From an uncultured Myxococcales bacterium (GTDB taxonomy: Bacteria; Myxococcota_A; Polyangia; Fen-1088): a stretch of DNA of 64,000 bases. The stretch covers positions 4,770 to 68,769 of the forward strand of contig CAZNCQ010000006.1 of NCBI GenBank assembly GCA_964571275.1, given 5' to 3'. The translations under genes were made by a program, and so were the position numbers. The notes below the pieces were generated by a model that saw only the letters and a list, made by a program, of their open reading frames with translations, was not told where the DNA came from and searched no databases. Shown piece by piece: positions 5,881-15,982 of this stretch. Positions within the stretch are counted from its first letter, which is position 1, and each line of letters opens with the position of its first letter.

Positions 5881-6249
5881 CTACTTTCCCCGCATCTCCT
5901 TCGCGCGCATGGTGTGATAGTCGGCCGCCTTCTCGGCATCGGCGGATAGTTTGTCCGCATCCTTGGACAGCATCTCGCAATGCTTCTGCATCTTGTCGTT
6001 CCAGGGGTTCTTCACGCCGCCCTTCGAATCCGGGTGCTCCTTCGCGTAGGCGGCCGCCATTGCCCGGTGCTCGTCCCCCACCTTCTTGAATTGAGTGGCC
6101 TCCTCTTTGTATTGCCTGGCGAGCGCCTCGTGCTCGGCCATCGTGGTGGGCACCTTCGCGTCTCCGGCGAATGAGGCCTTGGCGATCAGCGCGGCCGCCG
6201 CAAAAGCGAGAGATGAGACGAGCACAGGGATCTTGGTTCGGAAAGTCAT
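5881..6249 (-). CDS. small secreted helical protein, function unknown
   Basis: ATG at 6249 with GAGGAG upstream. Signal peptide MTFRTKIPVLVSSLAFAAAALIAKASFA. The mature part is charged and helical (122 aa total). Confidence 0.6.
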   Translation of the reverse strand: MTFRTKIPVLVSSLAFAAAALIAKASFAGDAKVPTTMAEHEALARQYKEEATQFKKVGDEHRAMAAAYAKEHPDSKGGVKNPWNDKMQKHCEMLSKDADKLSADAEKAADYHTMRAKEMRGK

Positions 6250-6595: not shown

Positions 6596-9103
6596 CTACA
6601 AGCGGGACCATCGCGACGGGACGAGCATGCGCCACCCGACGGCCAGGACGGCGCCCGCGAAGGGGATCAGCCAGGAGAGCGGACGGAGAGGCACGATGCT
6701 CATCAGCGCCGCCGCGGCCGGCGTGTACATCATGATCGGGAGGCTGATCGCGGCCGCGCCCCACACGATCCAGAAGCGCGGCGAGCGGGGCAGGATCGCG
6801 CTCGCACGTTCTGCCGAGGCGGCGCGCTCGGCGAGGACGAGGATCTGGTAACCGATGATGAGGGTCGCGAGAGCGACGGCGCGGGCGTGGTCGGTCCCAG
6901 ACCGCATATTCCACCAGAACACGGCGAACACGGCCGCCGACAGCAAGAGGCCGGATAACGTCGATCGCAGCACGGCTGCTCTCGGCAACATGGGCGCGCG
7001 CGGATTCCGGGGCGGCCGGCGCATGAGGTCGCCCGGCGCAGGATCACCCTGGAACAGCAGGGCGGAAACCGGGTGAACAATCAGCTCGAGCCAGATCAGG
7101 TGCAGCGGCATCAGCAGGAGGGGCAGGCCGACAATCGGAGGCATCAGCGCCAGCAGCACGATCGGGATGTGGAACGCGATCAGGTACAGGAACGCGCGCT
7201 GGATATCGAGGAAGATCTTCCGGCCGGCGCTGACCGCAGCGACGATCGAGGCGAAGTTGTCATCGAGCAGGACCAGGTCGGCCGCTGCCCGGGCGACGTC
7301 CGTCCCGCGCTGGCCCATGCTCACGCCGACGTCGGCTTGCCTGAGGGCCGGCGCATCGTTGATGCCGTCGCCCGTCATTGCGACGATCTCACCTTCAGCC
7401 TGCAGCGCCTCCACGATCATGTGCTTCTGCGCCGGCGAGATGCGGCAGAGGATGCTGGCGTCGGCGATGAGGCGTCGGCGCAGGCCGGCCGGCGCGGCCG
7501 CGAGCTGTTCGCCGCTCACGATCGCGTCGTCACGATGAATGATGCCCGCGCTCTCGGTGATCGCATGAGCGGTGAGGGCATGATCGCCGGTGACGACCTT
7601 GATTCGAACGCCGGCCGCCTGGCACTCGCGGACCGCGCCCGGCACCTCGGGACGCATCGGGTCCCGAAAGCCGAGTAGCCCGACCACCGACAGGTTTCGC
7701 TCGTCGTCCCCTCGCGTGATGCCCGTTGGGTTCGGGTCGACGCGCTCCGCGACGGCGAGCACGCGGATGCCCTCGGACGCGAGCCGCGCGTGGAGTTGCT
7801 CGATCGCGGTCCGCTCGGCAACCGCTACGTCCGCGTGCTCGAGGATTCCTTCGAGCGCGCCTTTGGCGACCACCCGGATCGTCGGGCCCCCGCTCGCCGG
7901 CGACCAGACGTGCGACATGTGCTTGCCGATGGGATCGAAATCGTGGTCCCGGACGAGACGCCAGTTCTCGATGAGCCGCTCGACGTCCATGCCTTGACGC
8001 GAGGCACGCGTCTCGATGGCCCGCTCCATGGGATCGCTCGGAGAAACCTCCGACGCGAGCACCGCCGCTGCCAGAAGCTCGCGCTCGGTCGTGTGGCCGA
8101 ACGGGACCACCTGGTCCAACACGAACTGCCCCTTCGTGAGGGTCCCGGTCTTGTCGGTGCAGATGACGGTCGTCGAGCCCAGCGTCTCCACGCTGGCGAG
8201 GCGCCGCACCAGCACGCCCTGCTTCGTCAAGCGCCAGGCACCCACGCTGAGGAACAGCGTGAACACGAGCGGGAATTCTTCCGGGGCGGCCGACATCGCG
8301 ATGCTGATCCCGCCGAGCAGGGATTGCCCCCAGCCGAGGCCGCGCAGCAGCCCGAGGCCAACCACCGCCGCGGCGACGACGGCGGCGATGACCGCGAGCT
8401 TCTTCACGAGCTGGCCGACGCGCCGTTGAAGCGGCGTGAGCGTCGTATCCGACGCCGCCACGAGGCGCGCGATCTCCCCGAACCGCGTCGCTCGCCCGGT
8501 CACGACGATCTCACCCTCGCCGTGGCCCGCCAGCACCGTCGATCCGGCGAAGAATCGTCCGTCGGCCGGAGCTCGGTCGCCAGCCACCGTCAACTCGACG
8601 GTTTGCTTGCCCTGAGGCTCGGACTCGCCCGTCAGCGACGATTCGTCGATGGCGAGGTTCGCTGCCGACCGGACGACACCGTCCGCGTGAATGAACTCTC
8701 CTTCGGAGAGGACCAGGAGGTCGCCTGGCACGAGCTCCGCAGTGTCGATCGTCGTCTCGCAACCGTCCCGGATCACCCGCGCGCGCGGCGCCACACTGCG
8801 AGCCAGCCTTTTGAGCGCCGACCGCGAGCGCGCTTCGAGGAACACATCGACGCCGATCACCGGGACGAGCGCGCCCAACATCACGATCGCGTCTCGCGCC
8901 TCGCCGAGCAACCTGTAGACTCCGGCCGCGGCGACGAGCATGATCGCCATGGGGTCGAGGAGGAGCGTGGCCGCATCCTTCAGCCAGGCCGCGCGCTCTC
9001 GGCTGACCAGCCTGTTTGGCCCGTGCTCGAGCAAGCGAGCGCGCGCTTCGTCCGTGGTCAGCCCACGGCTCCGCGCCGCCGCCGCCGGTTCGTTGATGGC
9101 CAT
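6596..9103 (-). CDS. cation-transporting P-type (E1-E2) ATPase
   Basis: Motifs TGES, phosphorylation site ICTDKTGTLT, KGA, VTGDH and MTGDGINDAPAL, plus about 10 TM segments. Start chosen at MAINEP (AGGAAG 8 nt upstream); the ORF stays open to 9178. Confidence 0.9.
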   Translation of the reverse strand: MAINEPAAAARSRGLTTDEARARLLEHGPNRLVSRERAAWLKDAATLLLDPMAIMLVAAAGVYRLLGEARDAIVMLGALVPVIGVDVFLEARSRSALKRLARSVAPRARVIRDGCETTIDTAELVPGDLLVLSEGEFIHADGVVRSAANLAIDESSLTGESEPQGKQTVELTVAGDRAPADGRFFAGSTVLAGHGEGEIVVTGRATRFGEIARLVAASDTTLTPLQRRVGQLVKKLAVIAAVVAAAVVGLGLLRGLGWGQSLLGGISIAMSAAPEEFPLVFTLFLSVGAWRLTKQGVLVRRLASVETLGSTTVICTDKTGTLTKGQFVLDQVVPFGHTTERELLAAAVLASEVSPSDPMERAIETRASRQGMDVERLIENWRLVRDHDFDPIGKHMSHVWSPASGGPTIRVVAKGALEGILEHADVAVAERTAIEQLHARLASEGIRVLAVAERVDPNPTGITRGDDERNLSVVGLLGFRDPMRPEVPGAVRECQAAGVRIKVVTGDHALTAHAITESAGIIHRDDAIVSGEQLAAAPAGLRRRLIADASILCRISPAQKHMIVEALQAEGEIVAMTGDGINDAPALRQADVGVSMGQRGTDVARAAADLVLLDDNFASIVAAVSAGRKIFLDIQRAFLYLIAFHIPIVLLALMPPIVGLPLLLMPLHLIWLELIVHPVSALLFQGDPAPGDLMRRPPRNPRAPMLPRAAVLRSTLSGLLLSAAVFAVFWWNMRSGTDHARAVALATLIIGYQILVLAERAASAERASAILPRSPRFWIVWGAAAISLPIMMYTPAAAALMSIVPLRPLSWLIPFAGAVLAVGWRMLVPSRWSRL

Positions 9104-9203
9104 CACCACACTTCCTGCCATGCGAACGAGGCGGAGTCCGACGAAGCGCTGTGGTGACCGGAAGACCGCGCCGCGCACACGCCAGCGCTCACAGCCATCC
9201 CCC

Positions 9204-12338: not shown

Positions 12339-12992
12339 ATGATCGAGGCGAAGCTCCTTGTTGGTAGGTTCTTGCAGATCACCACCGCGCCCACGAGGCC
12401 CATGCGCGGCGTGCCTCCCATCTTTGACATCGTCGTATGTCCTCCGTTGACGATCCAGGAGTCGACCCGGTTTGCGGGTCCCCTCGGCGGTCACTTCGGC
12501 CAAAAGGCGAGCGCCGTGGTTCCGGGCGCAAACCCAAACCCAGGCAAGATTCACCGCAACCTGAAATGGTTGCCGTATTACGAGGGTGATATTTCGGCAA
12601 CGACCCAGACCTGCGACGTCCTCACCGGCCCCATGTCTGGCTGCCCACTGGTTCGTTATCTACATGCGGGTCAAATCCACGTCGGACACATAGGCACCGT
12701 CCTCGGCCAGGTTGCCGTGAACGCCGCTGTGACGGGTCTTTGGAATGCTTTCGCCCTGGCAAATCCGGGCAGCGTTCTCGGAGGGTTCAATCCGTTTGGT
12801 GCCGGCGTTCCCTTGCCTCCGGCGGCCATTGGACAGGACAGTGTCGCCCGGATCTGGGGCCTCATCACCACGGCCGGAGGGTTCTTCTCGGTCCAGGTCT
12901 ACCAGCAGCTCAATCAGGCCAACTACTACCGGGTGGCGGCCGTCCACGCGGTGCCGTCGATGACGTTGGCCCAGCTTCAGGCTCTTCACTAG
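12339..12992 (+). CDS. hypothetical protein with Cys/His enzyme-like motif (low-GC3 orphan)
   Basis: This is the only plausible part of the chimeric 10452..12992 ORF. 217 aa from ATG 12339 (alternative start 12402). It has many A/T-ending codons (ggt, cct, tat, gat, att, caa, ata, aat). Motif TGPMSGCPLVRYLHAGQIHVGHIGT. Its stop overlaps the stop of the convergent gene (CTAG at 12989-12992). Confidence 0.55.
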   Translation: MIEAKLLVGRFLQITTAPTRPMRGVPPIFDIVVCPPLTIQESTRFAGPLGGHFGQKASAVVPGANPNPGKIHRNLKWLPYYEGDISATTQTCDVLTGPMSGCPLVRYLHAGQIHVGHIGTVLGQVAVNAAVTGLWNAFALANPGSVLGGFNPFGAGVPLPPAAIGQDSVARIWGLITTAGGFFSVQVYQQLNQANYYRVAAVHAVPSMTLAQLQALH

Positions 12993-13780
12993 CGTCGCGC
13001 CGTGGATCGCGGTCGTTGGGCGACGTCCAGGACCCGCTCGGCGACCAGCACCTGCAACGTCGCCCGCTCGTGTCCGGCGGTGCGCAGCGCCGCGACACAG
13101 ACCGGTGTCGCGCACGTCGCCCAGATCTGAACCTCGCCGGCCTCGGCCTCGCGCAGGACGCCGGAGATGGCGGGCGCGAGCAGCACTTCGATCTCCCCTT
13201 CCGCGTCGGGCACCAGTCGCGCCGCCGTCACGTCGTCGGCGGAGCCTGCTCCCGCGTTCATTGCGGCCGCGACGGAGGTCGGCACGCGCAGCAGCGTCGC
13301 ATCCTCACCGCGGACCAAGGCGGTGTCATCGCTGAGCGAGGCCGGATCGGTCGTCTGCGCCGGTGCTCGCTGCGCACGCTGAACGGCTTGCTCGATCCGG
13401 CAGATGACCGCGGTCGTCGAGCCCGCGGGAACCTGCCCGGCAATGTAATCGAGCAGGACGTCCGCCTCGGTGGCGAAGAACGACTCCGTGCCTCCGCCAC
13501 GCTCGACCCAGCCCTTGACCAGGGTCCGCCGTTCGTGCGGCGGCAAGGTTCCGAGGGTCACCCGGGCCGCGTTCAACGTCCGCAGCTCGCACCACGACCG
13601 TTGCACCTCGACCATGAATCGAAATCCGGGGTTGCCCGACAAGCGATGGAAGAACGCGGCTTCCCGCGCGGACAGGGCGGGGGCGGACTCGTCCGACGGG
13701 CGTGCCTCGAGATCCTCCAGCGCCGGAATGCGCCGTTCGCGAACCGCCGTTCCGAGGAGCCTCTGAAACCGGCTCAGCAT
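12989..13780 (-). CDS. MNIO partner protein (MbnC/TglI/DUF2063-type position), function inferred from context
   Basis: 263 aa. Its ATG overlaps the stop of the upstream DUF692 gene (ATGCTGA at 13780-13774). The N-terminal helical region (…AAFFHRLSGNPGFRFMVEVQRSWCELRTLNAARVTLGTLPP…) is loosely reminiscent of DUF2063-type partners. The assignment rests mainly on position. Confidence 0.6.
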   Translation of the reverse strand: MLSRFQRLLGTAVRERRIPALEDLEARPSDESAPALSAREAAFFHRLSGNPGFRFMVEVQRSWCELRTLNAARVTLGTLPPHERRTLVKGWVERGGGTESFFATEADVLLDYIAGQVPAGSTTAVICRIEQAVQRAQRAPAQTTDPASLSDDTALVRGEDATLLRVPTSVAAAMNAGAGSADDVTAARLVPDAEGEIEVLLAPAISGVLREAEAGEVQIWATCATPVCVAALRTAGHERATLQVLVAERVLDVAQRPRSTARR

Positions 13781-14736
13781 TCGGCGGTTCCGCGCGCAAC
13801 GATCACGTCGGCTCCCGATCGGCGTCGATACCGGTGCCAGATCTCCCGCGCGCGTTCGAGCTCCCGGCCGATCAGCTTCGGCCCCAGGCGGGGAGCCGCT
13901 TCGTCGAGCACCTCGAACACCACGCCCGCGACGTTCGGTGCTCGGGGCAACACGTCTTCCAGCAGTCTCCAGACCGGCTCAGGAACGCCGGCGTTATGGC
14001 CGTCCATGTAGAACCCATCCCGCCAGGAGCCCCCGGCCACGTGAATCTCCAGCACGCGTTCGAGCCGCACACCCTGGAGAAGACTCGCGACGTCGATGCC
14101 GAAGTTGACCGCATTGCAATACAGGTTGTGCAAGTCCAGCAGCTGCCAGCAGCGGCCCCGTTCGACGATCGCGTTCATGAGGCCGATCTCCCCCTGGATC
14201 TCGTCGTCGAATGGAAGATCGAACAGGTAGTGCGCGGGGTTCTCGAGCAGGAAAGGGACGCCGTACCGATCGCAAAGCCCCGCCGCCCGCGGCGCCACCA
14301 GGTCGACGGCCTCGCGCGTGCTCGGCAGCGGCAGCGGAACACCGACGGACACGAAGTCCCGCGTCGAGGCCCCCGCCGGGCAGGCAGGCGGGACGGTTTG
14401 AAAGCCAAGGTGCTCGCTGTGCCATTGAAATGGCCACATCTTCCAGAACCGATCGAGCATGTCGATGTAAGCGTCGTTCCAGCCTTCGGCGGAGCCGATT
14501 GAAAGCTCCACGCCGTGGATCACAATCTGCAAACCGTCGCACGTCTGGCGAGCCCGCTCGACGTGCGACGGGATCAGATCCAACGCTCTTTGTCCCCCTA
14601 CCCGACGCTCGCGGCACAGCGACTCCGGCGTGACCTCGACGAAGTCGATCAATCCGGAGCGATAGATCTCCGGTGGAAGGTCAGCGATGTACGGGAAGCC
14701 GACGCCGCTGATGGAGATGGAGGACGCGTTCACCAT
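13774..14736 (-). CDS. DUF692 / multinuclear non-heme iron oxidase (MNIO; MbnB/TglH/HvfB/BufB family)
   Basis: 320 aa from ATG 14736. Family motif series present: FVEVTPES, VIHGVELSIGS, WHSEHLGF, FLLENPAHY, LLDLHNLYCNAVNFG, EIHVAGG...FYMDGHNAGVPEPVWRLLE. Confidence 0.9.
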   Translation of the reverse strand: MVNASSISISGVGFPYIADLPPEIYRSGLIDFVEVTPESLCRERRVGGQRALDLIPSHVERARQTCDGLQIVIHGVELSIGSAEGWNDAYIDMLDRFWKMWPFQWHSEHLGFQTVPPACPAGASTRDFVSVGVPLPLPSTREAVDLVAPRAAGLCDRYGVPFLLENPAHYLFDLPFDDEIQGEIGLMNAIVERGRCWQLLDLHNLYCNAVNFGIDVASLLQGVRLERVLEIHVAGGSWRDGFYMDGHNAGVPEPVWRLLEDVLPRAPNVAGVVFEVLDEAAPRLGPKLIGRELERAREIWHRYRRRSGADVIVARGTAEC

Positions 14737-14737
14737 C

Positions 14738-14953
14738 TCAACGAGCGAGTGCTCCGGTCTCGAACGAGATGACGTTTTCCTTGGACAGGTCCGGCGGCGG
14801 ATCGCCGAGGAATTCGACCTGCAGACGCATGACGCGACCACAGTGCCCACAGCCGGCGATTTTCGTGATCTGCGCAACCACCTGGGTGAGCGCCTCCAAT
14901 GTTTGTCCTTTGGGGTTCAAGGTCGCGGCGGTGAAATGTGCCTGGTTTGACAT
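14738..14953 (-). CDS. candidate RiPP precursor peptide (71 aa, central AGCGHCG motif)
   Basis: ATG 14953 with GGAGG 4 nt upstream. The stop TGA lies 1 nt before the MNIO ATG (TGAgATG). Sequence: MSNQAHFTAATLNPKGQTLEALTQVVAQITKIAGCGHCGRVMRLQVEFLGDPPPDLSKENVISFETGALAR. No signal peptide and only two Cys. Confidence 0.6.
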   Translation of the reverse strand: MSNQAHFTAATLNPKGQTLEALTQVVAQITKIAGCGHCGRVMRLQVEFLGDPPPDLSKENVISFETGALAR

Positions 14954-15055
14954 GGGTCCTCCATTCGTTGACGATTGATTCCGCTTGAAACGGCAGAACG
15001 TTCACGATGACAAACGGCCTCAAGACCCATTCTTCCCTGGTCGCGAGCGGTCGTT

Positions 15056-15982
15056 GTGCGTCTGACCAGCCGCGAACGGCGTTCTGGCTTGCGTCTGAGC
15101 CGCGACGCAAAGGCGCTGCAGGACTTGTTTCACGAATCGTCCTGGGCGCGCGCATTTCTGCGTGCGGCCGTTGGGCTCACGCCGCCTCCCACAGCGACGC
15201 TTTTCCATGTGCCTGGCGCCGAGGCTTACTTCACGCGCCCTGAAACGCGAACCCTGTCCCGCGCGGCACGACGGCGGTTGCGCAAACGGCCGATTGCTCC
15301 TGACTTTTGGTCCCACGCACACGGATCATGTCTTGTTTACGCGCGGGTGCTGTCATTGCTGGAGCCGGAACGGAACGCTCCCCTCCCGGCGCGCATCCTG
15401 GACTTTGGTTGTGGAGCGGGCGCCCAACTTCGGGCGCTCGCGCGCAACCGGGCTGTGAAGGACGCGTGCGGCGTTGAGGTATCACCTCTGTTTCAGAAGC
15501 TTTACGATCAGTGGTTCGAGCGGATCCGCGAGGTCCCTCCTGTTTGGCGCGCCGGCCGTTGCCGGGTTGTCGGTGGTCGGTTCCCTGCAGATCCCGTCGT
15601 TGTGCGCGCTATCGAGGGTCCGTTCGATCTGGCCATCGCGAAGAACGTGCTCAAGCGCGGGTGCCTGCGCCCGGGCCGCGGACTGCAGCCCCACACCGCG
15701 CTCGGCATGTCGAGCGCCGCCTTTCTGCGCGCGATACGCGGCTCGTTGCGCCCCGGTGGACAATTCGCCGTCTATAACCTCTATCCCACGTCGACGACCA
15801 GAACACCCTGGGCCTGGCGAGGGCCACCCTTCGCCCGTCGAACGTGGAGCAGGGCCGGATTCGAACTGCTTCACTACGAGGTCGACGACTCGGTGGCGGC
15901 GCGCGCCATCGCACGTGCGCTTCGCTGGCCCAACGCCATTGGAACGTCGGCGGCGTTCACCCTCGCCCGCAGGAGCGACTGA
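15056..15982 (+). CDS. class I SAM-dependent methyltransferase
   Basis: Motif I ILDFGCGAGAQ, post-I DACGVEVS, and motif IV/V-like FDLAIAKNVL...LRPGGQFAV. GTG start at 15056 is uncertain. The gene is divergent from the MNIO operon. Confidence 0.75.
   Translation: MRLTSRERRSGLRLSRDAKALQDLFHESSWARAFLRAAVGLTPPPTATLFHVPGAEAYFTRPETRTLSRAARRRLRKRPIAPDFWSHAHGSCLVYARVLSLLEPERNAPLPARILDFGCGAGAQLRALARNRAVKDACGVEVSPLFQKLYDQWFERIREVPPVWRAGRCRVVGGRFPADPVVVRAIEGPFDLAIAKNVLKRGCLRPGRGLQPHTALGMSSAAFLRAIRGSLRPGGQFAVYNLYPTSTTRTPWAWRGPPFARRTWSRAGFELLHYEVDDSVAARAIARALRWPNAIGTSAAFTLARRSD

Follow-up and report, generated by a model that had tools for sequence, protein, structure and literature searches.

A three-gene locus and its small first gene

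The stretch of DNA analysed here (the window) comprises 64,000 nucleotides (nt) from an uncultured Myxococcales bacterium (assembly GCA_964571275.1, contig CAZNCQ010000006.1, positions 4,770 to 68,769). Its minus strand carries three consecutive genes, here called A, B and C. Gene A (14738..14953, stop codon included) encodes a 71-residue peptide that we regard as a candidate enzyme substrate (precursor) on the basis of its translation, its family and its adjacency to a gene for a multinuclear nonheme iron-dependent oxidative (MNIO) enzyme. That neighbour is gene B (13774..14736; 320 residues), assigned to the MNIO (DUF692) enzymes by the Pfam model PF05114. Gene C (12989..13780; 263 residues) encodes a partner protein whose N-terminal domain is helical and whose C-terminal domain, in an AlphaFold2 model compared by Foldseek, resembles the recognition element (RRE) of peptides made by the ribosome and modified after translation (RiPPs). 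The stop of A and the start of B are 1 nt apart, and B and C overlap by 7 nt.

When 14738..14953 is translated on the minus strand, the product, 71 residues and a TGA stop, is identical to the peptide put forward in an earlier sequence-only reading of this DNA, which had left the strand unstated. The peptide has an isoelectric point of 6.7 and a mass of 7.6 kDa. Its two cysteines, at positions 35 and 38, lie within A-G-C-G-H-C-G-R, with 34 residues before them and 33 after. No hydrophobic segment is present in the peptide: Kyte-Doolittle means over 15 residues peak at 1.09 (residues 21-35), and a signal peptide or transmembrane helix is therefore not predicted. The earlier description of two mid-peptide cysteines with arms of approximately 33 residues and no signal peptide or transmembrane segment is thus confirmed by translation and hydropathy.

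Gene A has the properties of a coding sequence. GC content by codon position in its frame is 0.61/0.46/0.71 (GC3 > GC1 > GC2) in a window with an overall GC content of 68%. A Shine-Dalgarno sequence, GGAGGA (14957..14962, minus strand), can be read 3 nt upstream of the ATG. In a codon-level comparison of eight loci, the ratio of nonsynonymous to synonymous substitution rates (dN/dS) against homologues is 0.18-0.28 in the better-resolved pairs, and synonymous change is saturated between gene A and its distant homologues. Three other open reading frames (ORFs) overlap the gene: 14687..14950 and 14769..14978 on the plus strand and 14730..15155 on the minus strand. The sequence-only reading had staked its proposal on conservation of the ORF, and on this point the coding gene stands, with homologues in 83 clusters (see below) and dN/dS near 0.2. 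Gene A is real, and it evolves under purifying selection. It is single-copy: neither a second copy nor any other candidate substrate was found in the window.

A word-indexed search with gene A returned five close homologues (51-87% identity), and when 1.84 billion representative proteins were searched with a profile, 83 clusters were returned at E<=1e-3, of which 43 reach E<=1e-10; each cluster is a 50% identity representative. Family members are approximately 60-80 residues long, three long spurious matches and some mis-called starts aside. The spurious matches (P0068, P0084 and P0088) are long proteins that were matched through proline-rich stretches and lack CxxCG[RL]; they were rejected from the family. 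The family is unannotated: every relative in the databases is named 'hypothetical protein' at its source, and Pfam and NCBIfam models gave no meaningful match to gene A or to family members. All named relatives of gene A and of the partner protein come from metagenome-assembled genomes (MAGs), namely of Bryobacteraceae and Burkholderiaceae and one 'Margulisiibacteriota' MAG. The Burkholderiaceae copy of gene A (locus L019, 4763..4942) has just 59 residues and an extra cysteine at its end.

Column counts over 91 family sequences place the strongest conservation at Cys35 (91/91), Cys38 (89/91) and Gly39 (91/91), flanked by Gly34 (86/91) and Arg40 (84/91). Conservation extends into both arms of the peptide, at Gln17 (77/91) before the motif and at Phe48 (76/91), Asp51 (83/91), Pro52 (89/91), Gly60 (70/91) and Val61 (72/91) after it. 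The family signature is G-C-x-x-C-G-R followed by F-x-G-D-P-x-P-x-L. In gene A, column counts and a six-frame regular expression search place the presumed modification site at G-C-G-H-C-G-R, codons 34-40 (14834..14854, minus strand). Exactly two cysteines occur in 89 of the 91 members. Two sequences, P0021 and P0086, have lost the second cysteine (C-T-E-S-G-R and C-D-K-Y-G-R), and the seven members without Arg40 have leucine there, giving C-G-L in place of C-G-R.

The two residues between the cysteines vary freely (Gly36 in 18/91, His37 in 13/91), and the exact string A-G-C-G-H-C-G is clade-specific. By these counts, a copper site made of two heterocycles bracketing a histidine, as the sequence-only reading had imagined, is not supported at the family level, and neither is a CGHC motif of the protein disulfide isomerase type, a resemblance which that reading had rightly called probably coincidental. 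It had also placed both cysteines in a Cys-Gly or small-residue context. This holds invariantly only for Cys38; the residue after Cys35 is variable across the family (P, G, L, D, T and others) and is often Asp, Arg or Glu.

An AlphaFold2 model of gene A, built from 61 sequences, has a pLDDT of 68.8 and a pTM of 0.48 and contains a single helix at residues 19-32; the N-terminal 30 residues score best. Comparison of the family sequences with the PDB gave only insignificant matches to CxxC/zinc-ribbon segments and to de novo designs (E >= 0.03). By this modelling, gene A is not predicted to fold as an autonomous domain, and a partly ordered model of this kind fits a peptide-like substrate that would become ordered upon binding. 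Its conserved arms are unlike the classical arrangement of a conserved leader and a variable core.

Enzyme, partner and gene order

Gene B is an MNIO enzyme, matching PF05114 (MbnB_TglH_ChrH) with 150.4 bits (cutoff 25; E 7e-44) over profile positions 11-260 of 263. Against the named NCBIfam MNIO equivalogs it falls under the cutoff in each case: BufB (117.8 bits, cutoff 310) and HvfB (105.6 bits, cutoff 360), which are the best partial matches, ApyH (81.7 bits, cutoff 400) and ChrH (77.2 bits, cutoff 600). With a profile of nine orthologues, the closest solved relative is TglH (8hci; E 7e-34), aligned mainly over the C-terminal half; 3bww matches at E 3e-26, and MbnB (7dz9) is marginal, at E 8e-4 over 89 residues. 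The analogy to MbnB- and BufB-type enzymes drawn in the sequence-only reading consequently fails at the level of orthology, given the BufB score and the MbnB E-value. As judged by these comparisons, gene B lies outside every characterised MNIO clade. All nine orthologues share residues H74, H109, E165, D201, N204, H232, D245, H247 and E275, which fall in HG, SxHL, LEN, LDxxN, IHxAG and DxH blocks that align to TglH and 3bww. Going by the MNIO family in general, we take these residues to be the iron-ligand set, and on this basis the enzyme looks catalytically intact.

Gene C has no match among Pfam or NCBIfam models. A profile search returned 92 homologues, none of which has a precomputed Pfam domain, and the family is approximately 250 residues in size across the loci. 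Nothing significant was found when the profile was compared with PDB sequences. The AlphaFold2 model, from an 85-sequence alignment, has a pLDDT of 88.3 and a pTM of 0.79 and consists of an N-terminal helical domain (1-138) and a C-terminal alpha/beta domain (154-253). Its top Foldseek match in the PDB is NGO1945 (3dee; E 9e-5), with TglI also found (8hci_A, E 4e-4; 8hi7_A, E 1e-3); these top three matches all have a probability of 1.00, with TM-scores of 0.50-0.63. MbnC (7dz9_C) is not significant in the same search (E 1.2, probability 0.10). The DUF2063 signature was detected in none of the 85 members, even at E<=0.1. A class of MNIO partners that are encoded after the MNIO gene, are structurally related to 3dee/8hi7 and lack DUF2063 has been described as PME-type 2 (Antoine et al. 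2025, PMC12452194), and the precursors that accompany such partners have no signal peptide (PMC12452194). Because gene C follows the MNIO gene, has the NGO1945/TglI fold in its model and lacks DUF2063, we assign it to PME-type 2.

Metagenome contigs, GTDB genomes and exact-protein look-ups together yielded 41 related loci, of which 39 are genuine. The other two, L003 (Phycisphaera; 6001..6063) and L041 (6001..6045), are false positives with FLGDPPP-like strings in unrelated or antisense frames. At each genuine locus (39/39) an MNIO gene comes directly after the homologue of gene A, and gene C comes after the MNIO gene wherever the contig reaches that far. The homologous small ORFs that the sequence-only reading had looked to find upstream of MNIO genes are thus present throughout, with the two cysteines as their most conserved positions. 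The linkage is also recovered when the search starts from the partner protein, as 3/3 distant loci (L018, L019 and L020) encode an A homologue of 59-75 residues, an MNIO enzyme and the partner. A-B-C is a self-contained, translationally coupled cassette, in the order precursor - MNIO - partner that is the commonest for MNIO genes (PMC12452194).

An all-against-all comparison of flanking ORFs at 16 representative loci found no recurrent neighbours beyond A, B, C and a methyltransferase. At the related loci examined there is no linked protease, exporter or transporter, regulator, DoxX or metal-homeostasis gene, and no other conserved small ORF or cysteine-rich gene lies beside the cassette in any clade. 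The methyltransferase (15056..15982, plus strand, divergent from gene A) is a class-I S-adenosylmethionine (SAM) enzyme by near-threshold matches to Methyltransf_23/12/11; its start codon is uncertain, as homologues align from residue 17 onward only. It is linked to A-B-C in the window and at L004, L010 and L023 (52-76% identity), where the genes further out differ, and is missing from L002, L016-L020, L028, L029, L033 and L037. This distribution suggests a subclade-specific tailoring enzyme.

Several other features were observed around the cassette. In the window, a 196-residue gene of unassigned function (12402..12992, plus strand) converges on gene C; it has a gene call in L007 and is not beside the cassette in other clades. 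Approximately 5.5 kb from the cassette lies a P-type cation ATPase (6596..9178, minus strand) whose Cation_ATPase_N/C domains are of the Ca/Mg type and not of the CopA type; as it is not conserved beside the cassette elsewhere, it lends no support to a copper link. In a metagenomic relative, an ISL3-family transposase (L012, 253..1485) lies directly upstream of the gene A homologue. This neighbour, and the fact that the flanks are unrelated in every clade, hint at mobility of the three-gene cassette. At L018 (6933..12762) the cassette adjoins a ribosomal-protein/SecY/RpoA operon, and the copies at L016 and L017 adjoin secG, which places it among housekeeping genes and not in a secondary-metabolite island.

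Gene A as a candidate substrate

We infer that gene A encodes a ribosomal substrate for the products of genes B and C, and give this reading a probability of roughly 0.7. That the peptide is an MNIO precursor, as the sequence-only reading proposed, gains support from its context, its conservation in a family of even length (about 65-75 residues), the 1-nt spacing to the PF05114 gene and the linkage at 39/39 loci; the modification itself is a prediction drawn from sequence.

By analogy to TglHI, MbnBC and BufBC, the gene C protein would heterodimerise with the enzyme. Its RRE-like domain may capture the N-terminal arm of gene A (an extended segment at approximately residues 8-14 and the helix at 19-32); MbnC and TglI bind leader peptides by antiparallel beta-sheet (PMC10214503). 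Capture would place the G-C-x-x-C-G-R loop at the multi-iron site of gene B, where O2-dependent oxidation would begin at Cys38, the cysteine with the invariant Cys-Gly-Arg context. Cys38 is preferred as the starting site because both the ChrH and FonB precedents favour Cys-Gly. The reaction of ChrH begins at the second cysteine of ChrA, which precedes a glycine, and the first cysteine closes a ring to which a SAM-derived thiomethyl group is added, giving chryseobasin (PMC10214503); FonB, which forms thiooxazoles, favours a Cys-Gly dyad and does not accept a charged residue after the cysteine (PMC12668002). Cys35, so often followed by Asp, Arg or Glu, is therefore less likely to be the primary site. 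It may also be converted, or may act as a neighbouring thiol, either as a ligand or as a nucleophile of the kind seen in chryseobasin.

The most likely outcome would be a cysteine-derived N,S heterocycle of the 5-thiooxazole or oxazolone-thioamide type, with a loss of 4 Da per cysteine. A 5-thiooxazole-type heterocycle is the most probable product by analogy, as this is described as the prevalent MNIO modification of cysteine. In the subclade of the window, methylation by the neighbouring SAM methyltransferase may follow.

The modified product probably stays a full-length cytoplasmic protein of approximately 70 residues, given the conserved arms, the lack of a signal peptide and the absence of any linked protease or exporter. 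For the long follower behind the cysteines the sequence-only reading had offered a protein-like product, double proteolytic maturation or a peptide that is not the substrate at all; the first of these fits best, on the same grounds. The 2025 survey states that MNIO products can be protein-sized and not just short peptides (PMC12452194). Such a product would plausibly bind thiophilic metals, by analogy to other MNIO products. A bolder extension, in which the cassette belongs to an uncharacterised MNIO clade, nearest to TglH among solved enzymes, that installs a novel modification on G-C-x-x-C-G-R of a cytoplasmic protein, not of a secreted RiPP, and in which the product of roughly 70 residues retains its two arms and has an intracellular role such as metal handling or redox, strikes us as possible but doubtful. 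The modification could be, for example, a heterocycle or crosslink that bridges the CxxC and differs from 5-thiooxazole, from oxazolone-thioamide and from the chryseobasin scaffold.

Several observations weigh against gene A as such a substrate, or limit what can be said of its chemistry. A central core with a conserved 33-residue C-terminal arm is unusual among RiPP precursors, and a single candidate site differs from the multiple cysteines typical of bufferins and captophorins. The second cysteine is missing in 2/91 family members. The neighbourhood gives no pointer to copper or any other metal, and the sequence itself argues neither for copper nor against it. Because gene B belongs to no characterised clade, the chemistry of known enzymes cannot be transferred to it.

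The best-surviving alternative keeps gene A as substrate and changes the reaction: as with ChrH, Cys38 would be oxidised and the thiol of Cys35 would add to it, giving a small macrocycle or heterocycle that bridges the CxxC, and in the subclade of the window the neighbouring SAM methyltransferase would S-methylate the bridged product. The ChrA motif, C-P-A-C-G-M-G, has the same C-x-x-C-G spacing (PMC10214503), and both the two-residue spacing and the count of exactly two cysteines are nearly invariant in the gene A family. The methyltransferase keeps its place beside A-B-C in four lineages whose remaining flanks differ, but it is missing from most of the family. Moreover, gene B scores 77.2 bits against the ChrH cutoff of 600 and lacks the extra length of ChrH, gene C is a soluble NGO1945/TglI-like protein and not a DUF1772 membrane protein, and the gene A motif is central, not C-terminal. 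We judge ChrH-like chemistry to be unlikely on the whole, yet a serious alternative, above all in the subclade that has the methyltransferase.

Less likely again is that gene A is an accessory subunit, with a CxxC-based role in metal or iron handling, redox chemistry or scaffolding, and that the true substrate is encoded elsewhere. The arms of gene A are conserved as in a small protein and not as in a leader joined to a variable core, the CxxC motif occurs just once, and a weak profile likeness to zinc-ribbon CxxC segments (RecR and L32; E 0.04-3) was seen, although it is not significant. The authors of the survey also caution that precursor status is hazardous to assign to unknown ORFs (PMC12452194). 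Against this, the cassette is accompanied by no other conserved small ORF or cysteine-rich gene, only one copy of gene A exists in the window, and the peptide is not predicted to fold autonomously. Two cysteines are too few for a zinc or Fe-S site in a monomer, and the invariant Cys-Gly agrees with the known site preferences of MNIO enzymes. In characterised MNIO systems, as far as we know, the enzyme and its partner suffice, and the gene in front encodes the substrate. Finally, the idea that gene A is spurious, either a frame left open by chance where GC content is high or a shadow cast by an overlapping gene, has a negligible probability: several ORFs do overlap its position, but the reading is refuted by the low dN/dS and saturated synonymous change and by a family of 83 homologous clusters from source genomes of 56-70% GC, with the codon-position GC pattern and the ribosome-binding site also speaking against it.

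If the product of gene A is intracellular and full-length, MNIO protein modification would extend from the periplasm, where bufferins are found, to the cytoplasm, and a function would be given to a small-protein family named 'hypothetical' in all the database records found here. Known MNIO chemistries include oxazolone-thioamide formation, beta-carbon excision, the chryseobasin rearrangement, 5-thiooxazole formation, ortho-hydroxylation, nitrile formation and bis-hydroxylation, and newly examined subfamilies nearly always differ in chemistry (PMC10214503 and the other papers cited here). A-B-C is a minimal three-gene test system that should express easily and offers one sharply defined site, G-C-x-x-C-G-R. 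For these reasons (a minimal cassette, a sharp site and a class of enzymes in which uncharacterised clades have repeatedly given new chemistry) it should interest RiPP and metalloenzyme specialists.

Comparison with known MNIO systems

The closest solved relatives of genes B and C belong to the TglA/TglH/TglI system of 3-thiaglutamate (pearlin) biosynthesis, which also has a precursor without a signal peptide and a PME-type 2 partner. TglH excises the beta-carbon of a C-terminal cysteine that has been appended by a peptide aminoacyl-tRNA ligase (PEARL) enzyme. In contrast, the cysteines of gene A lie inside the peptide and are encoded by the gene itself, the loci carry no PEARL-type gene, and only the C-terminal half of gene B aligns well with TglH.

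Chryseobasin shares with the present system the C-x-x-C-G of its substrate (CPACGMG in ChrA, G-C-x-x-C-G-R in gene A). The ChrA motif is C-terminal, whereas that of gene A occupies residues 34-40 of 71. The partner ChrI is a DUF1772 membrane protein and gene C is soluble, gene B is not an orthologue of ChrH, and the chr cluster has a peptidase, whereas none is linked to A-B-C.

In the bufferin and captophorin systems (BufABC, HvfABC for oxazolin, FonABC for fontiphorin), an MNIO enzyme with a two-domain partner likewise acts on cysteine, with a Cys-Gly dyad favoured (PMC11626156, PMC12668002). Their precursors carry a Sec signal peptide and several cysteines or repeats, their partners are of the DUF2063 kind (PME-type 1), and DoxX and regulator genes are often nearby. 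Gene A, by contrast, has no signal peptide and a single CxxC, gene C has no DUF2063, and neither DoxX nor regulators are neighbours. The signatures of these precursors (DUF2282 and Lys-Cys/Cys-Lys repeats) are absent from gene A, which has no Pfam or NCBIfam match. We considered the fontiphorin paper as a possible description of the gene A family and rejected it, as it concerns EGKCG repeats with PME1 partners.

Methanobactin (MbnA/MbnB/MbnC) resembles the cassette in that an MNIO enzyme makes an N,S chelating heterocycle from cysteine in a small-residue context, and in the order precursor - enzyme - partner. MbnB is, however, marginal to gene B (E 8e-4), and MbnC has no significant match to gene C. 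MbnA has 20-30 residues, loses its leader by cleavage and is served by an export/uptake system of its own; neither a cleaved leader of this type nor such a system is seen at A-B-C.

A literature search on MNIO enzymes with CxxC, PME-type 2 partners, Acidobacteria and cytoplasmic or follower peptides returned the 2025 survey and unrelated systems, with no experimental work on such a family. The nearest descriptions are those of adjamnio-1, -2 and -7, which are small cysteine-motif proteins without signal peptides that accompany MNIO enzymes of small sequence similarity network clusters and PME-type 2 partners, known from bioinformatics only (PMC12452194); adjamnio-7 carries a CxxC (PMC12452194). 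These groups are represented by proteins of cultured Massilia, Hahella and Novilysobacter, whereas the named relatives of gene A come from MAGs. On a comparison of descriptions, the gene A family may coincide with adjamnio-1, -2 or -7. A-B-C is thus a precursor - MNIO - partner system of a known kind that is either new or, at most, bioinformatically catalogued.

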